Assembly: GCA_024672315.1 (NCBI GenBank)
Contig: GCA_024672315.1_4714.1
DNA: 64,000 bases
From: a phage
Reading direction: 5' to 3' (one strand)
The notes under the pieces were generated by a model that saw only the letters and a list, made by a program, of their open reading frames with translations, made no database searches and was not told the origin of the DNA. Position numbers and translations under genes: made by a program. Each line of letters begins with the position of its first letter. Position 1 is the first letter of the stretch. Below, one piece after another: positions 1,884 to 64,000 of this stretch.

Positions 1884-4793
1884 ATGAACGATATAAATAA
1901 AGGGCGCGTCGCCCTCGAACGTCAAATGAGTAATAATGACGTTGCGAAGGCACTCATGAACAAATTTGTCGCTCCTGCTCCGCAGTCACGTCTTTATAAT
2001 ACACGTGATGCGGAAGGAGCGAACGGTCGTTTCGGGTTAGTTGTTCCCGACCAAATGACGATGAACACGGTTACGCGTGCGACCGCGACAAACATCGAGG
2101 ATAATAAAAACATCCTCGAGTTGTTCCCTGAACTTAAACGCGTGATGCAGATCTATGTTGCCGCGTTGACGAACCCTAACGATCTTAAGACGGTCGAGAT
2201 GTTTATCGACAGCGAAGATTTCCCCGGCAGAGTCGCAGAAATCGTTCAGCCGATGATCGATACCATCGACACGCATTTTAAGAATATCTATAAAATAAAG
2301 ACGCTTATCCCTCGTATCATCGAAGACGTCTTCTTTATCAAGGGCAGTTATAACTTCGTTGTTCTGCCAGAAAGCACGCTCGACCGCGCCATTAATGGTA
2401 ACGGTCAACTGAAACTTGAAGAATACGGATTTAAAGACAACCATTTTGCAAGTTGGGGGCTTCTAGGTAACGACAGTCGCAAACGCCACGAAAATCAATT
2501 ACCTGCGACGGTTTCGATGGAAGATTATTTCTCAGGCGTTAATGAAACCATACCGTACGATCCTGTTGTTCGCATAGACAGCATTAAGTTTACCAATACC
2601 CTGCTTCGTGATAAGGACGGTAAATTCATTGAAGCGAAGATCGATATTCCGGATATGGTTACGGTTGTCGATAACCCAGACATCCTCCGCATGCCTATTC
2701 TACATCAACGTCGAGCAGCGACCGCGGTACAACGTGCGTTACGTGCGAACACGTTAGGTGGTAGTGGTTTGGTAACACTGTCAGGTGATCCGACCCTAAC
2801 CGCTAACCGACGTGAGCTGTCGCAAGAACAGGTTAACGAGATTTGGAATAAACTCAACATCCAGCGTCACACCAAGGTATCTCCCGTTTACGCGTTGGCA
2901 ACCCCAGATACACTCGATCGTCAAAGCGTTGGTCATCCTGGCGTGATGCACGTACCACCTGAGGCATTAGAACCCGTACATGCACCAGGTGATCCGGAGA
3001 ACCATATCGGGTATTTAGTTCAGTTGGATGAGTTTGGTTATCCGGTGCGTTTGGTTGAAGACGCAGCGTATTACAAGCAGTTGGAAGGTCGATTGTCGAA
3101 GATCACCGCGGATATCGCAGGTACGTCAAGCAACGGCATGGCGAGCGAGATGATCGGCGCAGCCAAGAACATGATCCAAGGTACGTCATGTAATCAGGTA
3201 GACATGTCGGCCTTCGTATCGTCGTACGAATCGCTGATGCAACGTTACATTGTTGAACGTATCGTTAACGGCTATCTTGGCAGTGCGGTGGAAATCGGCG
3301 CGACATCATCGTTCTATTTGTCTATGCTTGCTCGTAGTCTCGCTCACAAGCAGACCCGTGTTTTGTTTATTCCTCGAGAGATGGTGACTTACATCGCCTA
3401 TGAATACAACAAATACGGTATCGGTCGTTCGCTGCTTGAAAGTACGAAAATGATCTCGTCGCAACGAGCCATGCTCATGGTTCAAGAACTGATGGCGAAA
3501 ATCAAAAGTTCGTTGAACTATACGACGTTAAGCGTAATGCTTGAAGACACCGACAGAAACCCGGTCGATACCGTCGAACAAGCACTACATAGTTTCGCTC
3601 GTGTCTACCAGTCTGGTTTCCCGTTGGGTGAAACTAACCCGATGGATATCATCAATGCGTACGAACGAAGCTCGATTCGATTGAAGGTTGAGGGGAATAA
3701 CCCACGCTTCCCGAAATTGAATACAGACGTCAGCGTTGAGCAGCGCAACTATCAGTCTCCTGATAATGAGCTGATGGATCGTTACCGTCGTGACCATTTC
3801 ATGGGCTTGGGCGTTTCTCCGGAGATTATCGATACTTCCTACCAATCTGAATTCGCAGCTTCTGTGATTACAGCTAACGCGATGCAGGAGAAACAGTTCA
3901 CGGTTTGTCGTGAGGTGATCACGAATGGGTTATCGGACCACATCAAGAAATACACGGCATACAGTCCCGTGTTGTTGACGTCGTTACGAAACACGGTTCG
4001 TGCGAACATGTCTAAGCTCTCCCAGGCACAATTGAAGCAGCTTTTTGGTAGCGATTTCGAAAACGGTGTTATCCGTAACGTTAACGCCTATCAGGAGATT
4101 GACGACCAATCAGCAACAATGGATCTGGATTACACTAAACCAGAAGTCCAGGAAGTTATTGCCGATGCTTATGTGTCCATGTTCTTAAACAGCCTGCGTG
4201 TGCGTTTACCGGATAGCAATGCTCGTCGCCTTGAAGATCAGGTACGTGAATATAATCAGTACAAGGAAGCGATTACTGCGCAACTTGATGATTATTTAAC
4301 GCCTGATTACGTCATGGGTCTGGGTGGGGTTGATGAAACAACGCTGCAGATGATTCGTGCATGCATTATTGGTACCGCGATGCGTACGTGGGCAAAAGAG
4401 AACAACTTCAATCAGGAGCTAGCTGATCTCTTCAGTCTTGACGATAAGAAGAATGCCGTGCAAGATTGGAAACGTATGTCCATGGAACATATTGAAGTCA
4501 TGGGTAAATGCATGGGTGATTTTGCATTGTATATTCAGAATCTGACGAAGAAGATTGAAGAGAAGATGGGCGCTCAAGCACAGGATGGTAGCGTTTCATC
4601 TGACGGTTCTTGGTCATCCGATTCAAGTAGCGATACCGGTTCTTCTGATGACTTCGGTGGCGGTGACGATTTCGGGGATACCGATTTCGATACCGAAACG
4701 ATGGAGGAAACCTCAACAGAAGAAACAACCACATCTGAGGATACGACGACCGACACAACGTCAGAAGACGATACTTCAGGTGATATTGTCTAA
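1884..4793 (+). CDS. large hypothetical protein (969 aa) with acidic Ser/Asp/Thr-rich C-terminal tail; possible virion protein
   Basis: Long ORF, ATG with AAGGAG upstream; diverges from gene 1 with interleaved RBSs; C-terminal low-complexity tail SSDGSWSSDSSSDTGSSDDFGGGDDF...; no Walker A motif seen; stop followed by A13 run and GC-rich hairpin. Confidence 0.8.
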   Translation: MNDINKGRVALERQMSNNDVAKALMNKFVAPAPQSRLYNTRDAEGANGRFGLVVPDQMTMNTVTRATATNIEDNKNILELFPELKRVMQIYVAALTNPNDLKTVEMFIDSEDFPGRVAEIVQPMIDTIDTHFKNIYKIKTLIPRIIEDVFFIKGSYNFVVLPESTLDRAINGNGQLKLEEYGFKDNHFASWGLLGNDSRKRHENQLPATVSMEDYFSGVNETIPYDPVVRIDSIKFTNTLLRDKDGKFIEAKIDIPDMVTVVDNPDILRMPILHQRRAATAVQRALRANTLGGSGLVTLSGDPTLTANRRELSQEQVNEIWNKLNIQRHTKVSPVYALATPDTLDRQSVGHPGVMHVPPEALEPVHAPGDPENHIGYLVQLDEFGYPVRLVEDAAYYKQLEGRLSKITADIAGTSSNGMASEMIGAAKNMIQGTSCNQVDMSAFVSSYESLMQRYIVERIVNGYLGSAVEIGATSSFYLSMLARSLAHKQTRVLFIPREMVTYIAYEYNKYGIGRSLLESTKMISSQRAMLMVQELMAKIKSSLNYTTLSVMLEDTDRNPVDTVEQALHSFARVYQSGFPLGETNPMDIINAYERSSIRLKVEGNNPRFPKLNTDVSVEQRNYQSPDNELMDRYRRDHFMGLGVSPEIIDTSYQSEFAASVITANAMQEKQFTVCREVITNGLSDHIKKYTAYSPVLLTSLRNTVRANMSKLSQAQLKQLFGSDFENGVIRNVNAYQEIDDQSATMDLDYTKPEVQEVIADAYVSMFLNSLRVRLPDSNARRLEDQVREYNQYKEAITAQLDDYLTPDYVMGLGGVDETTLQMIRACIIGTAMRTWAKENNFNQELADLFSLDDKKNAVQDWKRMSMEHIEVMGKCMGDFALYIQNLTKKIEEKMGAQAQDGSVSSDGSWSSDSSSDTGSSDDFGGGDDFGDTDFDTETMEETSTEETTTSEDTTTDTTSEDDTSGDIV

Positions 4794-4827
4794 ACGGACG
4801 TAAAAAAAAAAAATAACACATAGTTAA

Positions 4828-4862
4828 CCTTCTCCCCAACCCGATGAGGGAAGGGGAGAAGG
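4828..4862. terminator. GC-rich stem-loop, repeat-family member (putative bidirectional terminator)
   Basis: Perfect 10-bp stem CCTTCTCCCC/GGGGAGAAGG between convergent genes; flanked by CATAG upstream and TATG downstream; A13 run at 4802-4814. Confidence 0.45.
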
Positions 4863-4879
4863 GCTATGCGCTATTTAAT

Positions 4880-14451: not shown

Positions 14452-16062
14452 ATGGACCCAAAACAGATAGCCATTAAGATTATTACGTTACTGTTTCGTA
14501 ATGCACAATTGAACCATCCCGATCCCAGTACGATCGAACATGTTAAATCCGTCTTAGATAAAGTCGAACCCCCGAAAAACCATCTCGCTACAGACGTAGA
14601 TAGAGAGGTTTTCAGCAACCTGATGAACACCATTCATTGGATGCTGGAACAACCGTTATCGGAACCTTTCGATAAACAACAGTTGTTACAAAGGATACGT
14701 TTAGATTGCCTTGAACAAAGCAACCTTTACGAGATTCTTGCCGACGGACTGTACGATATCGAAGACGACGCTCATATCAGTAAGGTCTGTTCGCTCTATT
14801 ACAATGAATTACGTAATCTGATTACCCGTCGTCGTGTTTTCGAAACCTTTAAAAACACGTACATGGATATCAGTAACGGGCGACTTGGGGATAAAGAATT
14901 TTTCGATGCGATGGCGAATTTGAAATTATCGCTAGACAGTATCGAAATGGATACCGAAAATCCCGAAGAGATGTCGTGTATGATTGACGGCTTTATCGCT
15001 GACAGTGAAGACGATATCGAGAAAGTTGAACGTATGTTCGTCAAAGCGATGGAACGTAACAGTCCTGAAGGTGGGTTTGTAACCGGCTGGCAAGGCTTTA
15101 ATAAAATGTTGGGGTCGGTCGGCGTTTTACGTCGCGGTACCTTAGGACTGATTGGTGCAATGCAGCACCGGAACAAGTCAGGTGTGTTGTTAAAACTGTT
15201 CACGCATCTGGCACTGTACAATAAACCCCATTTCTTTTTTCCGGAGCGAGCAAAGAAAGCACTACTGATTCATTTGTCAACCGAAAACGAAGTGGAAGAA
15301 AACACGCTTCAAATATACAAGAACATGCGAGAACAGGAAACAGGCGAATATGTCGATATTCGTAAGATTGACCCTCGCGAGGCATCACGTTATGTGTTGA
15401 AGGTGTTCAATGATGCGGGTTTCTCTGTTTGTATGCGTCGTGTTGATGGGATGAGCTATAAACAACTCGCTAATCTCATCGACCATTTCGAACGCATGGG
15501 TTATGAAGTCATGGCGTTGTTCATTGACTATCTGAAAATGTTCTCATCGGAAGGGTTGGATAGAAATGGGCCGACCGGCGCATGGCTCCAAGAACTCTTT
15601 AACAAAGTACGTAACCTCTGCAGCGTTAAACGTATTTTAGGTATGACCGTACACCAGCTGTCATCCGATGCGAAGATGCGTGCGCGTGATGGCAACGATG
15701 AAGAGTTCGTTGACCAGGTCGCGGGTTTAAGTTACTGGGATGGTTGTAAAGGGATTGACCGTGAGATTGACCTTGAAGTGATTGTTGATATCGTTAAGGA
15801 ACCGGGCAAACGTCAAAGCTGGCAGGTCTTTGCGTTAGGGAAAGACCGTCAACCGGATAACGGTTCAACGAAACCTGAAGACAAACATTTCGCGATGCCA
15901 TTCCAAACCATCGGGATGCTTCCTGATGATTACGGTAAGAAAGCAGTATACTGCCGCAAGGTTGGCGGACAACCTGTCTCCGAGGGAGGTAAAGGTCCGT
16001 GGAACAAGTTCGATGAAAACGCAGCACCGAGTAATGAATTACAATTTGATTTAGAATTTTAA
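14452..16062 (+). CDS. hypothetical protein with degenerate P-loop NTPase-like motifs (possible DnaB-like helicase or terminase-type ATPase)
   Basis: ATG at 14452 with AAAGGA RBS (ORF-track start 14368 rejected). Motifs resembling DnaB helicase Walker B (ALFIDYLKMF vs DYLQLM) and H3 (HQLSS), with a degenerate Walker A-like GAMQHRNKSG. Assignment is weak. Confidence 0.35.
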   Translation: MDPKQIAIKIITLLFRNAQLNHPDPSTIEHVKSVLDKVEPPKNHLATDVDREVFSNLMNTIHWMLEQPLSEPFDKQQLLQRIRLDCLEQSNLYEILADGLYDIEDDAHISKVCSLYYNELRNLITRRRVFETFKNTYMDISNGRLGDKEFFDAMANLKLSLDSIEMDTENPEEMSCMIDGFIADSEDDIEKVERMFVKAMERNSPEGGFVTGWQGFNKMLGSVGVLRRGTLGLIGAMQHRNKSGVLLKLFTHLALYNKPHFFFPERAKKALLIHLSTENEVEENTLQIYKNMREQETGEYVDIRKIDPREASRYVLKVFNDAGFSVCMRRVDGMSYKQLANLIDHFERMGYEVMALFIDYLKMFSSEGLDRNGPTGAWLQELFNKVRNLCSVKRILGMTVHQLSSDAKMRARDGNDEEFVDQVAGLSYWDGCKGIDREIDLEVIVDIVKEPGKRQSWQVFALGKDRQPDNGSTKPEDKHFAMPFQTIGMLPDDYGKKAVYCRKVGGQPVSEGGKGPWNKFDENAAPSNELQFDLEF

Positions 16063-16090
16063 ACGCAAAAAAAAAAAAGATTGTGCGGTT

Positions 16091-16122
16091 CCCTCCTCCA
16101 ACCCGTAAGGGAAGGAGGAGGG
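16091..16122. terminator. GC-rich stem-loop, repeat-family member
   Basis: CCCTCCTCCAACCC-GTAA-GGGAAGGAGGAGGG between convergent genes; A12 run at 16067-16078; TTATG downstream. Confidence 0.45.
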
Positions 16123-16138
16123 GTTATGACCGCTTTGA

Positions 16139-60164: not shown

Positions 60165-61037
60165 TTAAACCCGGGTCAGGTCACCGTGACGTGAAACGAA
60201 CTCTGATAACGCTCGGGTTGCTTCTTTGGATTCTTCAGCCATCGGGAAGTTTGCGGTAATAAGTTCTCGTAAGACAGGGACGAGTTCGTTATCTTCGAGA
60301 TCGGAAGCTAAAGCGAATGCGATCAGTTCTTGGGTGTATGCATACGGTTGCTGACGTAATGTAGTAAGCTGATCCCGACACTGCGCCATCAGCAGGTCCA
60401 GTGGAACCGCTATCGTACCCCCTTCATCAATATACTGGCTGAACACCGGTGGGAACGCATCACTGATGACACGAATACGTCGACGGATGCGATCAGGAAT
60501 CTGGATGTTTTCCTCGTCGACTACGTTCTCGCTGTCTTTCTCCAGCTTCTTGGTCAGCACCTGCTGAATGCGTGGAAGCAAGCTTGAATGCACGAAACTG
60601 ATTAATGGGGTTACATTCGCAGCATCGACGCCGTAAATGTGTCGCGTACATTCTGCTAACGCTTCAGCTGCGGTGTAGTCTTCATCTTCAACGATAGCGA
60701 GTAGAAAAGCGGTATCGTCGTGTGTTTCCAGGTCTAATAACGTAGACGCCAGCGCGTGAAGATATTTCAGGCTATCCAGAGATAGTTGCCCTTCGTTAAT
60801 TCGGATCCCGAAGGCAAGCAATTGTTGTTTATAAAGTTCGATACATCCGTTTGTTAAAATGATATCTAATTCGTTTAAATCGTATTGTTCCCCAGCACCC
60901 GACAACATCGTACTGCAGAACGTTTCCAGTTGTTCACATTTAAAATCTTGGTATAAACGATGCATGCAGTGCTGTAACAGCGTACGCCTTGTTTCAGGGA
61001 TCTTACCTTCTAACAAAGCCAAGACGGAATCAATCAT
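60165..61037 (-). CDS. hypothetical protein (about 290 aa)
   Basis: Start moved to ATG at 61037 with GGAG RBS (ORF-track GTG start 61043 rejected). Confidence 0.7.
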   Translation of the reverse strand: MIDSVLALLEGKIPETRRTLLQHCMHRLYQDFKCEQLETFCSTMLSGAGEQYDLNELDIILTNGCIELYKQQLLAFGIRINEGQLSLDSLKYLHALASTLLDLETHDDTAFLLAIVEDEDYTAAEALAECTRHIYGVDAANVTPLISFVHSSLLPRIQQVLTKKLEKDSENVVDEENIQIPDRIRRRIRVISDAFPPVFSQYIDEGGTIAVPLDLLMAQCRDQLTTLRQQPYAYTQELIAFALASDLEDNELVPVLRELITANFPMAEESKEATRALSEFVSRHGDLTRV

Positions 61038-61133
61038 ATCCACTCCGATGCGGTAAATGTCTACTAGCTCTCATAATCTATTGAAGAAACTACCGGCTTA
61101 CGCCAACTTAGATTAATCAGGAGTAACCATCCC

Positions 61134-61607
61134 ATGCCAGTTTCATCCAAACCAAGAAAAAAATCCGTAGGAAACCCTAAAGCTCAGGAAACAACAGCAA
61201 TTCGTTGGGACGAGTTACGCGAACCTATCGAAAACTGCGAATTGTTATTAGGCACCCTGGGTGCGGCTATTTACCAAGCGACGCAGCCCTGTCGTTTACG
61301 ATTAACCCAAAACAAACGTGATGAGTTCGTTGCGTTATCAACAAGTACGAATAAAGATCTGACCGAACTTCAAACCGAGTTGACGACGATCAAGAACTCC
61401 ATCACACCGATGTACGGTAAAGAAGTTGATGAACAAAGTATTCTGTTACAGTACAACTACGGGATGTCGTTAATGAACATCCTGGAACGCGCATCCGATA
61501 TTCTGCGTCCTGACGTTGCACGCCTGAGCCAACTGCGTGTTGAAGGGATGGAGAACCAGATCCGATTCGCTAACAGTGTTAAATCTCAAGGAGCCACCGA
61601 AGCATGA
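61134..61607 (+). CDS. hypothetical protein (157 aa)
   Basis: ATG with AGGAG upstream; stop overlaps next start (ATGA). Confidence 0.7.
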   Translation: MPVSSKPRKKSVGNPKAQETTAIRWDELREPIENCELLLGTLGAAIYQATQPCRLRLTQNKRDEFVALSTSTNKDLTELQTELTTIKNSITPMYGKEVDEQSILLQYNYGMSLMNILERASDILRPDVARLSQLRVEGMENQIRFANSVKSQGATEA

Positions 61608-63289
61608 GCGAACAAGAAAAAGAAGTCGTGACGAATCAGGAAGCCGTTGAGCGTTCAGAGTCGTCCGCTGAAACAACGATTCCGGCAAGTTCCGATCCTG
61701 TTGGTTCCGCACAGCAGGAAAGTAAAGACGAAGTAAACACTACTAAAGAAGATGTAGTGGCTCCAGAAGCAACCCGTGAAGAAGAACCGTCACATCCGCC
61801 GTTGGTCGATTTCTCGAAGGCAACGATACGTTTCCAATGCGAAGACATTCGTCCTAAGAGTCCGAAGAAAACAAAACGCCAGCCGCTGGTGTTACCGCTG
61901 TATTCTCCGCGTGTACAGACAACGTATTACCGGGAATACATCAACGAAGCAATGGATACCGTACAAGCCATTGTCGCTCAACGCGGTAAACCGACAGACG
62001 AACAGTTTGATAAATTCAGTAAAGCGGTGGTGCAATCGGTTGCTGATGGTCAATACCATCCGCGTGGTCCAGCTCACGATCGCGCGTTGGAACGTAAGGG
62101 CAGTCAGTGGACTAACGTACCCGTAGACTCATCGGGTGTTGGTCGCGTTATTCCAGGCATTCCGCAACCGAACCATATTCCTGATGATGTCGAAGCGCCG
62201 CTGACAGGAACCGATGCGATCTATTTTGCTATCCGTAATACGAAATCAGGCGCACCTGCGGTAATGCCGTTATGGCATAGCGGTATTAAGCTGCAGTTCA
62301 ATCCGCCGTCAAATGAACGTGTTGCTATTATGCACGAACGTATTGCACGCGATAAAATCCTGGGTGGACGTGATAGCACCGGTTTCCTGTTTTCGGCAAC
62401 CTCGATTATCACCATGAAGCATGCTATCGAATTAGCATTAGAATGCTGTTACATGGCCAACGTACCGAACCTGGATATCCAGCGTTTGAAAGACATTATT
62501 CCGGTTACCGATGTTCCGGCGTTGTTGTTGAACGTGCTGGTAACCATGTACCCGTACGGATATCCTTACGTACAGACCTGCTATCAGAATCCAGAAACCT
62601 GCGACTATCGTGTCGAAGATACCGTAAGCTTTGCGAAACTCTATCAAGTTGACAACAGCGCAATTACCAAACGTATGCGACAGATCATGACCGAAGGTCC
62701 GGTCATGACCGATGAACTTTTGCGTGAGTATGCAAACGAGCTGGGTGAAACGAACTCCCGTACGCTGGATCTGTCCGACAACGGTTCTGTTATCATTGAA
62801 CTCGAAGTACCGAAGATCTCACGACAAATCGCCATGGGTGAACGTTGGTTAAGCGATACGCTGGAAGATCTGCGTGATATTCTATCGCGTCCGTCAATGA
62901 CCGAAGAAGAACGTGATCGTGTTATTCGTGAACGTCAGTTCTATAGCTGGATGCGTCAGTATGATGCGTGGATCAAATCTATGCATGTATCGGTAAACGG
63001 TACTATGCGTCGTGTAAGCGATGCAGATACGGCAACGGTATTAGCGCAGCTGTCTCGTGACAGCGACCTTCGTGAACGTTATATCGATGGGTTGATGCAA
63101 TTCATCGGTGATTCGACGATTGCGCTCGCAGCAATGCCTGCCTGGAAATGTCCGAAATGTAATGCCGATATTGCTGACAATCTGCGTGACCAGAAATACT
63201 ACGATCTGATTGCTTTGGATGTACCCCAGCTTTTTTTTACCCTAAACTCCGTCCAATCTCTTCAGGAGGGGATGGACGCGGTATTCTAA
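61604..63289 (+). CDS. hypothetical protein (561 aa); possibly continues by frameshift into 63352-63711
   Basis: AAGGAG RBS; translationally coupled to upstream gene; T8 tract at 63231-63238 lies in a 100-nt region where this frame and the -1 frame are both open. Confidence 0.75.
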   Translation: MSEQEKEVVTNQEAVERSESSAETTIPASSDPVGSAQQESKDEVNTTKEDVVAPEATREEEPSHPPLVDFSKATIRFQCEDIRPKSPKKTKRQPLVLPLYSPRVQTTYYREYINEAMDTVQAIVAQRGKPTDEQFDKFSKAVVQSVADGQYHPRGPAHDRALERKGSQWTNVPVDSSGVGRVIPGIPQPNHIPDDVEAPLTGTDAIYFAIRNTKSGAPAVMPLWHSGIKLQFNPPSNERVAIMHERIARDKILGGRDSTGFLFSATSIITMKHAIELALECCYMANVPNLDIQRLKDIIPVTDVPALLLNVLVTMYPYGYPYVQTCYQNPETCDYRVEDTVSFAKLYQVDNSAITKRMRQIMTEGPVMTDELLREYANELGETNSRTLDLSDNGSVIIELEVPKISRQIAMGERWLSDTLEDLRDILSRPSMTEEERDRVIRERQFYSWMRQYDAWIKSMHVSVNGTMRRVSDADTATVLAQLSRDSDLRERYIDGLMQFIGDSTIALAAMPAWKCPKCNADIADNLRDQKYYDLIALDVPQLFFTLNSVQSLQEGMDAVF

Positions 63290-63351
63290 TCGATCCGCGA
63301 TACGGGTTACACGACGGACAACTTGTTCGTAATGATGAAAAAATCTGGGAA

Positions 63352-63711
63352 TTGCTGTTAGCGCGTAAAGGCGACGGTGGCATGAAACTGAACATCGAAA
63401 TGGGTATTGCGTACGACACCATGTTTGGCTTGTACGACCGTGTTAACGAATGGACACCGTTGAAATGGGTTGCTCAGCATCCCGCTGAAGATCCCTGGGA
63501 CAGATTAGGGATTAAACCCTTAATCGAGGATTATGTTCGATTCGGTATTAAAGAGTTCATGACGCTGGATGCGTTTTTAAAAGCACCGTATCCTTACGCG
63601 CAAACGGTACTCAAAATCGCACAAGACGAACTGCGGAAACGTAGTGCGGTACTGGACGACGATGAGGACAAGTTACGACGAGAAGAAGAACGTTTACGAA
63701 ACGGAAAATAA
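63352..63711 (+). CDS. hypothetical ORF (119 aa); possibly the C-terminal part of a frameshifted fusion with 61604-63289
   Basis: Frame open from 63190 to 63711 with no ATG or RBS near the ORF-track TTG start; overlaps the end of the preceding ORF in the -1 frame. Confidence 0.45.
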   Translation: MLLARKGDGGMKLNIEMGIAYDTMFGLYDRVNEWTPLKWVAQHPAEDPWDRLGIKPLIEDYVRFGIKEFMTLDAFLKAPYPYAQTVLKIAQDELRKRSAVLDDDEDKLRREEERLRNGK

Positions 63712-63712
63712 A

Positions 63713-64000
63713 ATGGCGAGATTTACCAGTTTGATTGGGTTGGATATTTGGGAAACACCGGCTGACGTTCGGGTTATTCCTGTTAACACCGTCGGTGTGA
63801 TGGGACGTGGTCTTGCTAAGCAGGCAGCCGATCGTGTGCCCGGTCTTCTTGAAGCGTACCGTAAGCAATGTCAAGATGGGTTTAAGGTGGGCGAAGTCGT
63901 GTCATATCAGCATGGCGAGAACGATCAGCTCACCTACGTGTTGTTTCCATCAAAATCGGATTGGCGCGAAAAAACACGACGTGAGTATATCGTTAATGGT
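63713..64000 (+). CDS. macro-domain protein, TARG1/DarG-like (partial; continues beyond window end)
   Basis: N-terminus ...ADVRVIPVNTVGVMGRGLAKQAADRVPGL... matches the x-V-M-G-x-G-[IL]-A glycine-rich ADP-ribose-binding motif of TARG1/DarG-type macrodomains (from memory); ATG 1 nt after the upstream stop. Confidence 0.5.
   Translation, partial: MARFTSLIGLDIWETPADVRVIPVNTVGVMGRGLAKQAADRVPGLLEAYRKQCQDGFKVGEVVSYQHGENDQLTYVLFPSKSDWREKTRREYIVNG

Follow-up and report, generated by a model that had tools for sequence, protein, structure and literature searches.

The DNA analysed here is a 64,000-nucleotide (nt) stretch of a phage genome (contig GCA_024672315.1_4714.1 of GenBank assembly GCA_024672315.1), referred to below as the window. 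Over positions 61000-64000 it is 95.9% identical to Escherichia phage vB_EcoM_Goslar, a nucleus-forming, phiKZ-like jumbo phage. In this region an open reading frame (ORF) for a protein of 561 amino acids (aa) overlaps a second long frame in the -1 phase, and a run of eight T (T8) lies in the overlap. We conclude that some -1 recoding event very probably joins the two frames. Thus, 61604-63711 would be one recoded gene for two proteins that have their first 545 residues in common.

Across the run (+ strand; context ccccag c tttttttt accc) the codons of the upstream frame, 61604-63289, are CTT TTT TTT ACC. This places T_TTT_TTT at 63232-63238 in the X_XXY_YYZ phase, and the two TTT codons specify the conserved residues Phe544 and Phe545. 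The -1 frame stays open over 63190-63711; the remaining frame is closed (63207-63243). Our reading of codons and frames bears out the first-pass annotation, made from the sequence alone, which had pointed to T8 at 63231-63238, to the heptamer in the upstream frame and to both frames being open over 63190-63289. It had also remarked that the downstream ORF lacks an ATG or ribosome-binding site (RBS) near its TTG start. We agree, as this mechanically assigned start at 63352 is not preceded by a Shine-Dalgarno-like sequence, and the first ATG in the frame is at 63382 (the equivalent ATG was chosen as the start of Goslar gp082). Joining the frames at T8, after Phe545, gives a product of 702 aa (545 + 157). 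A fusion of about 700 aa, formed by -1 frameshifting or transcriptional slippage, had been proposed, and it is supported by the comparative data given below.

The run by itself is not beyond chance, as T7 matches in the window number 20 on both strands against 23 expected. T8 is the sole run of T or A of at least seven in the window that falls at the overlap of two long open frames with no longer ORF on the opposite strand. It is the comparative evidence that takes the T8 site far beyond chance.

Table 1. Features at and around the proposed shift site, in positions of the window
Feature	Positions	Strand	Basis or remark
Upstream ORF of 157 aa, ortholog of phiKZ gp78 and Goslar gp080	61134..61607	+	
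0-frame ORF, short product, 561 aa	61604..63289	+	Orthology, AlphaFold2 model, Goslar mass spectrometry
CPKC motif (Cys516, Cys519)	63149..63160	+	Invariant columns
T8 run with heptamer T_TTT_TTT at 63232-63238; proposed -1 shift site	63231..63238	+	Conservation, codon choice
-1-frame extension, 157 codons and stop	63238..63711	+	Includes the Goslar gp082 ortholog (ATG 63382 to 63711), phrog_12109
Dual-coding overlap: 0-frame tail of 16 aa, TLNSVQSLQEGMDAVF and stop; -1 frame YPKLRPISSGGDGRGIL	63239..63289	+	
Candidate stem-loop UCCGUCC...GGAUGGA	63247..63277	+	Begins 9 nt 3' of the run; weak, no function claimed
ILIDPRYGL, local form of the HV....FG motif	63283..63309	+	Straddles the 0-frame stop

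Conservation of the run and of both frames

A tblastn search of the fusion against 50,697 phage genomes matched 158 records, all of them from jumbo phages (hosts: Pseudomonas, Erwinia, Serratia, Ralstonia, Klebsiella, Vibrio, Burkholderia, Xanthomonas, Salmonella, Proteus, Cronobacter and Bacillus). Nearly all alignments stop at query residue 545-547, that is, at Phe-Phe, and matches past residue 545 are always a second piece in another frame. The orthologs are gp081/gp082 in Goslar, gp77/gp76.4 in phiKZ and gp136/gp135 in 201phi2-1. We assembled a set of 15 phage loci, Goslar, two close relatives and loci from IMG/VR. Of these, 95 could be scored, and each of the 95 has a run of T5-T9 at the codons for this conserved Phe-Phe and a -1 frame open for 150-225 codons past the run (the +1 frame is short in almost all). 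In the 15 phage loci, which were inspected by hand, the 0 frame ends 8-46 codons after a run of T5-T8, with at least 152 open codons in the -1 frame. Examples are CAAC-T7-ACTTTGG in phiKZ, CTGG-T7-ACTCC in Bacillus phage AgentSmith, CGG-T8-CAGC in Ralstonia phage RSL2 and GGG-T8-ACCCTAA in Erwinia phage Simmy50. IMG/VR contributed 80 more loci, with the same arrangement in 79 of the 79 that do not run off the contig. Even the four loci without Phe-Phe (FI or FT instead) have T5 and a -1 ORF starting F-Y-Y/Q-P. Conservation of the run and frames reaches down to about 20% protein identity.

At the protein level, the family comprises 1223 homologous clusters in an exhaustive HMMER search over 1.84 billion representative proteins. 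The best 150 of these are 324-658 aa long, and no natural in-frame fusion occurs among them. Together with close relatives from a search with the fusion they give 153 full-length family proteins, 145 of which carry Phe-Phe and end 8-22 residues later (34 in one case). Some lengths fall outside these ranges: Salmonella phage SPLA10 has a 46-aa 0-frame tail after T7, Cronobacter phage CR5 has a long N-terminal extension (720 aa), and BFVD also holds members of 686-687 aa (phiEaH2 and Myoviridae sp. ctLnO19). In Simmy50, gp271 is annotated with a 136-nt overlap into gp272, and gp135 of 201phi2-1 is annotated from the stop of gp136. Gene callers evidently picked up the long open -1 frame without reading recoding into it.

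These comparisons bear on the possibility, raised in the first-pass annotation, that a homopolymer sequencing or assembly error, or else a recent inactivating mutation, split a single gene of about 700 aa. Some sequencing platforms are error-prone at homopolymers, and joining the two frames does give an uninterrupted protein. However, Goslar, which was sequenced independently, has the same T8 and the same frame arrangement, and in every homologous locus examined a T-run and this arrangement are conserved. The T8 lies inside a 142-nt stretch (63176-63317) without differences to Goslar, compared with about 4% divergence overall. T8 followed by ACCCTAAACTCC is also present in relatives at 87, 85, 56 and 51% protein identity (metagenomic; NCBI, Logan and ENA assemblies). 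With the 702-aa fusion as query, the proteins retrieved were all 536-561 aa long and none was fused, so that comparison of orthologs for a single long ORF, suggested as a check, yields none here or among the best 150 of the 1223 clusters. The 0-frame tail after the run is kept in sequence and length, unlike a pseudo-tail. We therefore reject a sequencing error or pseudogene, the probability of which is close to nil.

Codon choice at the site was analysed in 93 non-redundant loci. The first Phe codon of the site is TTT in 90 of 92 loci. Elsewhere in the same ORFs, Phe-Phe begins with TTT in none of 40 cases (23 are TTC-TTT and 17 TTC-TTC), and other Phe codons are TTC 784 times and TTT 385 times. 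The third-position base just before the site is T in 84/92 loci, compared with 13/40 before the control Phe-Phe pairs, and this T is held whatever the amino acid (GTT, CTT, ATT, ACT, GCT, TCT, AAT or CAT). T_TTT_TTY is thus in phase with the 0 frame in 84 of 92 loci. Run lengths are T5 in 8, T6 in 14, T7 in 39, T8 in 28 and T9 in 4 of the 93. The use of TTT first and the preceding T indicate that the slippery sequence is selected here and avoided elsewhere in the same genes. This pattern suggests that TTT_TTY is actively avoided as an accidental slip site in genes of the family.

The position of the shift can be bounded from both sides. A -1-frame stop lies at most 12 nt upstream of the run in 26 of 92 loci (minimum 0), and the 0-frame stop is at least 24 nt downstream of the run in all loci. 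Only the T-run is common to all permitted shift windows, which pins the shift to the run. In more than 50% of loci the -1 product begins Y-P right after the run, which accounts for ACCCT being conserved as nucleotides. Within the extension, conservation is highest in HV....FG, a motif 16-24 residues past the slip whose aromatic position is at least 90% conserved (the near-invariant F22). It precedes the first -1-frame ATG in 91 of 92 loci, and its local form is upstream of both TTG 63352 and ATG 63382. Between 63290 and 63351, the columns that vary in an alignment of the six closest genomes fall most often at third codon positions of the -1 frame (18 vs 14 and 8), a pattern likewise found in the undisputed coding part downstream.

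We considered whether gp081 simply ends at 63289 and gp082 is a separate gene started independently at ATG 63382 or TTG 63352, in which case the T-run and the overlap would be incidental to Phe-Phe. All public annotations give two genes, the single gp082 peptide detected in Goslar is from the annotated part, and T4 gp26, which is without the extension, nevertheless has the conserved Phe-Phe at the protein level. This explanation leaves unaccounted for the -1 frame being open back to the run in 95/95 loci, the placement of the best conserved downstream motif before the first ATG in 91/92, the selection for TTT and a preceding T at this Phe-Phe only, and the constant placement of the downstream ORF in -1, never in +1 or 0. 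Nor is there an RBS at TTG 63352, and no promoter-like or terminator-like site was found in 62900-63800. An own start for the downstream ORF is thus disfavoured, and we regard two independent genes as improbable. The first-pass annotation had held that orthologs consistently present as two genes with their own starts would speak against a fusion. The orthologs are two genes in annotation but not in sequence, where the -1 frame always extends back to the run and the motif precedes the ATG.

The short product also appears to be real. The 0-frame tail has the consensus FFTLxxQRxxxIxxR and a tightly constrained length, and it forms part of a C-terminal helix (residues 540-560) in the AlphaFold2 model. 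Such conservation of both sequence and length is unlike that of a pseudo-tail. We conclude that short and long products are probably both made and, from the pattern of conservation, that selection acts on both frames.

Mode of the proposed -1 shift

The mechanism that we favour is ribosomal -1 frameshifting, to which we assign a probability of roughly 0.6. Most ribosomes would pass T_TTT_TTT, add the conserved, helical 16-residue tail and terminate at the stop at 63287-63289, giving the 561-aa protein. In a minority of ribosomes, the two tRNA-Phe on UUU-UUU (63233-63238) would slip back one base and re-pair with U-UUU-UU. These ribosomes would then read TAC CCT AAA... in the -1 frame to 63709-63711 and produce about 702 aa. 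In the long product the C-terminal helix would be swapped for a Pro/Gly-rich linker, the HV....FG-type motif and a helical domain of about 110 residues (annotated as gp082). The trans-frame junction peptide predicted by this model is YYDLIALDVPQLFFYPK in Goslar and FPHLIPIDMLSTFFYFGGLEVK in phiKZ.

Ribosomal slippage is favoured because the heptamer is in phase, the modal run is T7 (the exact heptamer) and 22 of the 93 loci have only T5-T6. Those 22 loci still keep UUU_UUY in phase. We infer both the ribosomal mode and the efficiency of the shift.

Several observations weigh against this preference. The hairpin 9 nt downstream (7-bp stem) is weak (z = -2.0), and an alifold prediction for five relatives has 13 pairs at the hairpin with essentially no covariation. 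Mean downstream folding over 87 loci (z = -0.66) does not differ from that of control windows (-0.56), and Shine-Dalgarno-like 4-mers are present upstream in only 18 of 89 loci. The site region has no match in Rfam, and the family survey found no conserved stimulatory RNA element (hairpin, pseudoknot or Shine-Dalgarno). At eight loci the run is T5 only with a mismatched X (G_TTT_TTC or xTT_TTT_A), which makes a poor site for tandem slippage. Runs of T7-T9, present in 71 of 93 loci, also suit slippage by RNA polymerase, and these phages transcribe with multisubunit RNA polymerases of their own. Finally, no trans-frame junction peptide was seen in the available part of the peptide table from the Goslar mass spectrometry, the search database of which lacked the fusion sequence, and the gp082 signal there is a single peptide from a preparation that also carries the non-virion proteins chimallin and PhuZ.

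It is possible that the phage multisubunit RNA polymerase adds one U at the T-run and that ribosomes decode this fraction of the mRNA normally. The comparative evidence for recoding fits such transcriptional slippage equally well. The T8 here and the T7-T9 elsewhere would serve it, no conserved ribosomal stimulator was found, and the Z position of the heptamer is T (58 to 32) more often than expected from general Phe usage (TTT 33%), which lengthens the run. The short runs in the other 22 loci argue against it, as T5-T6 is too short for appreciable slippage by bacterial and T7 RNA polymerases. In addition, runs never exceed T9 although longer ones would slip better, and polymerase slippage also produces one-base deletions, which would yield a truncated product here (CCC TAA in the +1 frame). 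Five A7 runs on the sense strand of other coding regions indicate that 7-mers are seemingly not strongly avoided. The phage enzyme may slip on runs as short as T5-T7. On balance, we consider transcriptional slippage a serious but less likely route.

Like those of dnaX (tau/gamma) and insertion sequence (IS) elements, the site is a tandem-slippage X_XXY_YYZ heptamer that would give two products in a fixed ratio from one gene. The dnaX and IS sites combine A_AAA_AAG with an upstream Shine-Dalgarno-like element and a downstream hairpin or pseudoknot, whereas U_UUU_UUY here comes with no conserved stimulator that we could find, and the shifted product is shorter in dnaX but longer here. Known transcriptional slippage sites include Thermus dnaX (A9), Shigella mxiE (T9) and Ebola GP (A7), and bacterial runs of this kind are about 8-9 or more. 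As at those sites, two frames are connected by a homopolymer within coding sequence, and one inserted base would shift reading into the -1 frame. Unlike known bacterial sites, 22 of the 93 family members have runs of only T5-T6.

Protein products and their possible relation to assembly chaperones

The AlphaFold2 model of the 561-aa protein (mean predicted local distance difference test, pLDDT, 82; predicted template modelling score, pTM, 0.81) has about 66 disordered, acidic N-terminal residues followed by a confident alpha/beta body and the C-terminal helix. Four cysteines are invariant in the family (Cys326 and Cys333, encoded at 62579-62602, and Cys516 and Cys519), and they presumably form a zinc site. 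There is a weak match to a YgiT-type zinc finger (E 0.029). Neither the 561-aa protein nor the extension matches Pfam or NCBIfam, the matching PHROGs (4585, 8054 and 12109) carry no assigned function, and no PDB match was found for the 561-aa protein. Foldseek against BFVD returned, after the phiKZ-like orthologs, baseplate entries of 226-285 aa (probability 1.0, E 2e-5 to 2e-3) named 'Baseplate hub assembly protein, bacteriophage T4-like', 'Baseplate hub subunit' and 'Baseplate protein'. TM-scores normalised to the target are 0.45-0.55, in comparisons of predicted with predicted structures. To our knowledge, there is no solved structure of gp26.

Sequence comparison with T4 gp26 is less clear. 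The 561-aa protein has no match to PF12322 at E up to 0.1 and none to a gp26-family NCBIfam model. Among 61 family members one matches PF12322, at E 0.014 and below the cut-off (T4 gp26 itself scores 215 bits). Aligned with hhalign, the family gives 46% probability over the CPxC region with T4 gp26 and 8% with an alignment of 26 gp26 sequences; of eight hub and baseplate proteins of T4 that were compared, gp26 scores best. The C-terminal layout of T4 gp26 is WKCTCG ... CPECGK ... FFELL and stop (it ends in CPECGKTHAHVIRGLKEFFELL), and the two proteins thus have in common a Cys pair, CPxC, a nearly invariant Phe-Phe, a short tail and the stop. From the predicted structures, the protein is likely a gp26-like relative at the level of fold, rather than a demonstrated member of PF12322. 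This fold is probably the reason why orthologs are sporadically named 'baseplate hub assembly protein' or 'baseplate hub' in GenBank. T4 gp51 also has a CPKC motif and aligns weakly to the same region of the family (hhalign 15.6%). T4 gp26, gp51 and the jumbo phage protein may have a zinc-ribbon module in common.

T4 gp26 is listed as a hub assembly chaperone, with its presence in the particle uncertain (PMC3004832). Gene 26 also gives two products, and in T4 gp26' is made by internal initiation. The jumbo phage protein is 2.5 times larger than gp26. The T4 Phe-Phe is encoded TTC TTT; a T-run and a -1 extension are both absent, and the stop codon of gene 26 is where gene 25 starts.

The extension domain has no detectable relatives in Pfam or among PDB sequences, and hhalign against T4 gp25, 26, 27, 28, 29, 48, 51 and 54 revealed no similarity. 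Its AlphaFold2 model, built from three sequences, is uninformative (pLDDT 44).

The proteins annotated as gp081 and gp082 were both detected in label-free mass spectrometry of CsCl-purified Goslar particles, where gp081 gave 24 peptides, 49% coverage and a label-free quantification (LFQ) area/mass of 2.35, and gp082 one peptide, 11% coverage and 0.34 (10.64898/2026.04.21.720040, Table S4). The molar LFQ ratio of gp081 to gp082 is about 7:1, a value that rests on the single gp082 peptide and is compatible with a shift efficiency in the 10-15% range. Estimated copy numbers in these preparations are 15-35 for gp081 and 14-33 for gp078, the neighbouring virion RNA polymerase subunit; the non-virion proteins chimallin and PhuZ are present at about 126 and about 170 copies (10.64898/2026.04.21.720040). 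The gp081 signal is therefore not proof of virion association, as chimallin and PhuZ are also in the preparation. The 'gp77' of the Goslar structure preprint is a different protein, a capsid decorator under Goslar numbering.

Programmed -1 frameshifting in a phage tail-morphogenesis gene is a familiar class of mechanism. Reportedly, Xu, Hendrix and Duda described in 2004 the G/GT-type frameshift of tail assembly chaperones in long-tailed phages (lambda G/GT, P2 E/E+E' and Mu). The P2 heptamer is T_TTT_TTG. As in these phages, the shift proposed here uses a homopolymer-type heptamer close to the 3' end of a probably non-structural tail-morphogenesis gene, and short and C-terminally extended forms with a common N-terminus are predicted from the frames. 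The shift is likewise conserved across very divergent phages although sequences diverge, and both forms are apparently needed. G/GT lies between the genes for tail tube and tape measure, whereas the gene studied here is flanked by the gp78-like ORF, divergent genes for a virion RNA polymerase subunit and a gp79-like protein, and a macro-domain gene. The short form is also much longer (561 aa, compared with about 100-150 aa in G/GT), and tail-assembly-chaperone matches in BFVD reach only E 0.5-1.2 and probability 0.08-0.44. We know of no tape-measure interaction of the 561/702-aa pair. Because its location and chaperone similarity differ, we do not file the gene as G/GT.

We infer an assembly-chaperone role for the 561/702-aa pair, which may work like G/GT through a fixed, low ratio of a long form with an extra docking domain to the short form. 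By analogy, and tentatively, the gp26-type hub chaperone could be the counterpart of the G/GT pair in the T4 and jumbo phage lineages, with the domain of the long form tethering it to tape measure, tube or hub as tails are initiated in all phiKZ-like nucleus-forming phages, and with T4 having swapped the frameshift for internal initiation (gp26'). The conserved -1 frameshift of long-tailed phages would then reach into a gene family that had not been connected with it; we hold this as possible but rather doubtful.

The stop of the 61134-61607 ORF overlaps the ATG of the frameshift gene (ATGA), and the order of gp78-like ORF and frameshift gene is maintained in phiKZ, 201phi2-1, PA1C, Noxifer and others. 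Downstream, the macro-domain gene has an ATG at 63714 (MARFTSL...), two bases past the stop of the -1 extension (TAAAATG). Goslar records start gp083 further upstream, with a 50-nt overlap with gp082, a start that is probably mis-called. An A7 run at 61157-61163 (AAG AAA AAA TCC, Lys-Lys-Lys) lies in the gp78-like gene, where only one frame is open, so that recoding is not suspected there. No homopolymer in the window is longer than two runs of A12 (+ strand; T12 on the - strand), at 4802-4813 and 16067-16078. Each of the two marks the 5' edge of an open frame of about 110-120 codons on the - strand (4498-4863 and 15794-16123). These could be promoter, untranslated region or terminator elements, or further slippage-prone sites.

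Significance for the phiKZ-like jumbo phages

The site is unannotated in every genome examined, and public records give two hypothetical genes. In the full-text literature open without subscription, no account of frameshifting turned up for phiKZ gp77, Goslar gp081 or any Chimalliviridae gene. The analysis goes beyond the first-pass annotation in that the 0-frame short product is conserved too, the protein is probably a gp26-like relative, and the site is family-wide in phiKZ-like jumbo phages. If the recoding is confirmed, a conserved gene of the phiKZ-like phages (Chimalliviridae) is mis-annotated everywhere, including in phiKZ, 201phi2-1, RAY and Goslar, and a protein of about 700 aa is missing from the proteome databases used for mass spectrometry, structure prediction and essentiality screens. 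Engineered jumbo phages must keep the T-run site.

The family also offers a deep and statistically very clean case of a U_UUU_UUY site without a stimulator, with matching avoidance of TTT-TTY elsewhere in the same genes. The gp26-like reading provides a functional handle on a family of more than 1200 sequence clusters that is without a Pfam model, and a testable link from the hub chaperones of T4 to the tail assembly chaperones that other tailed phages make by frameshifting.

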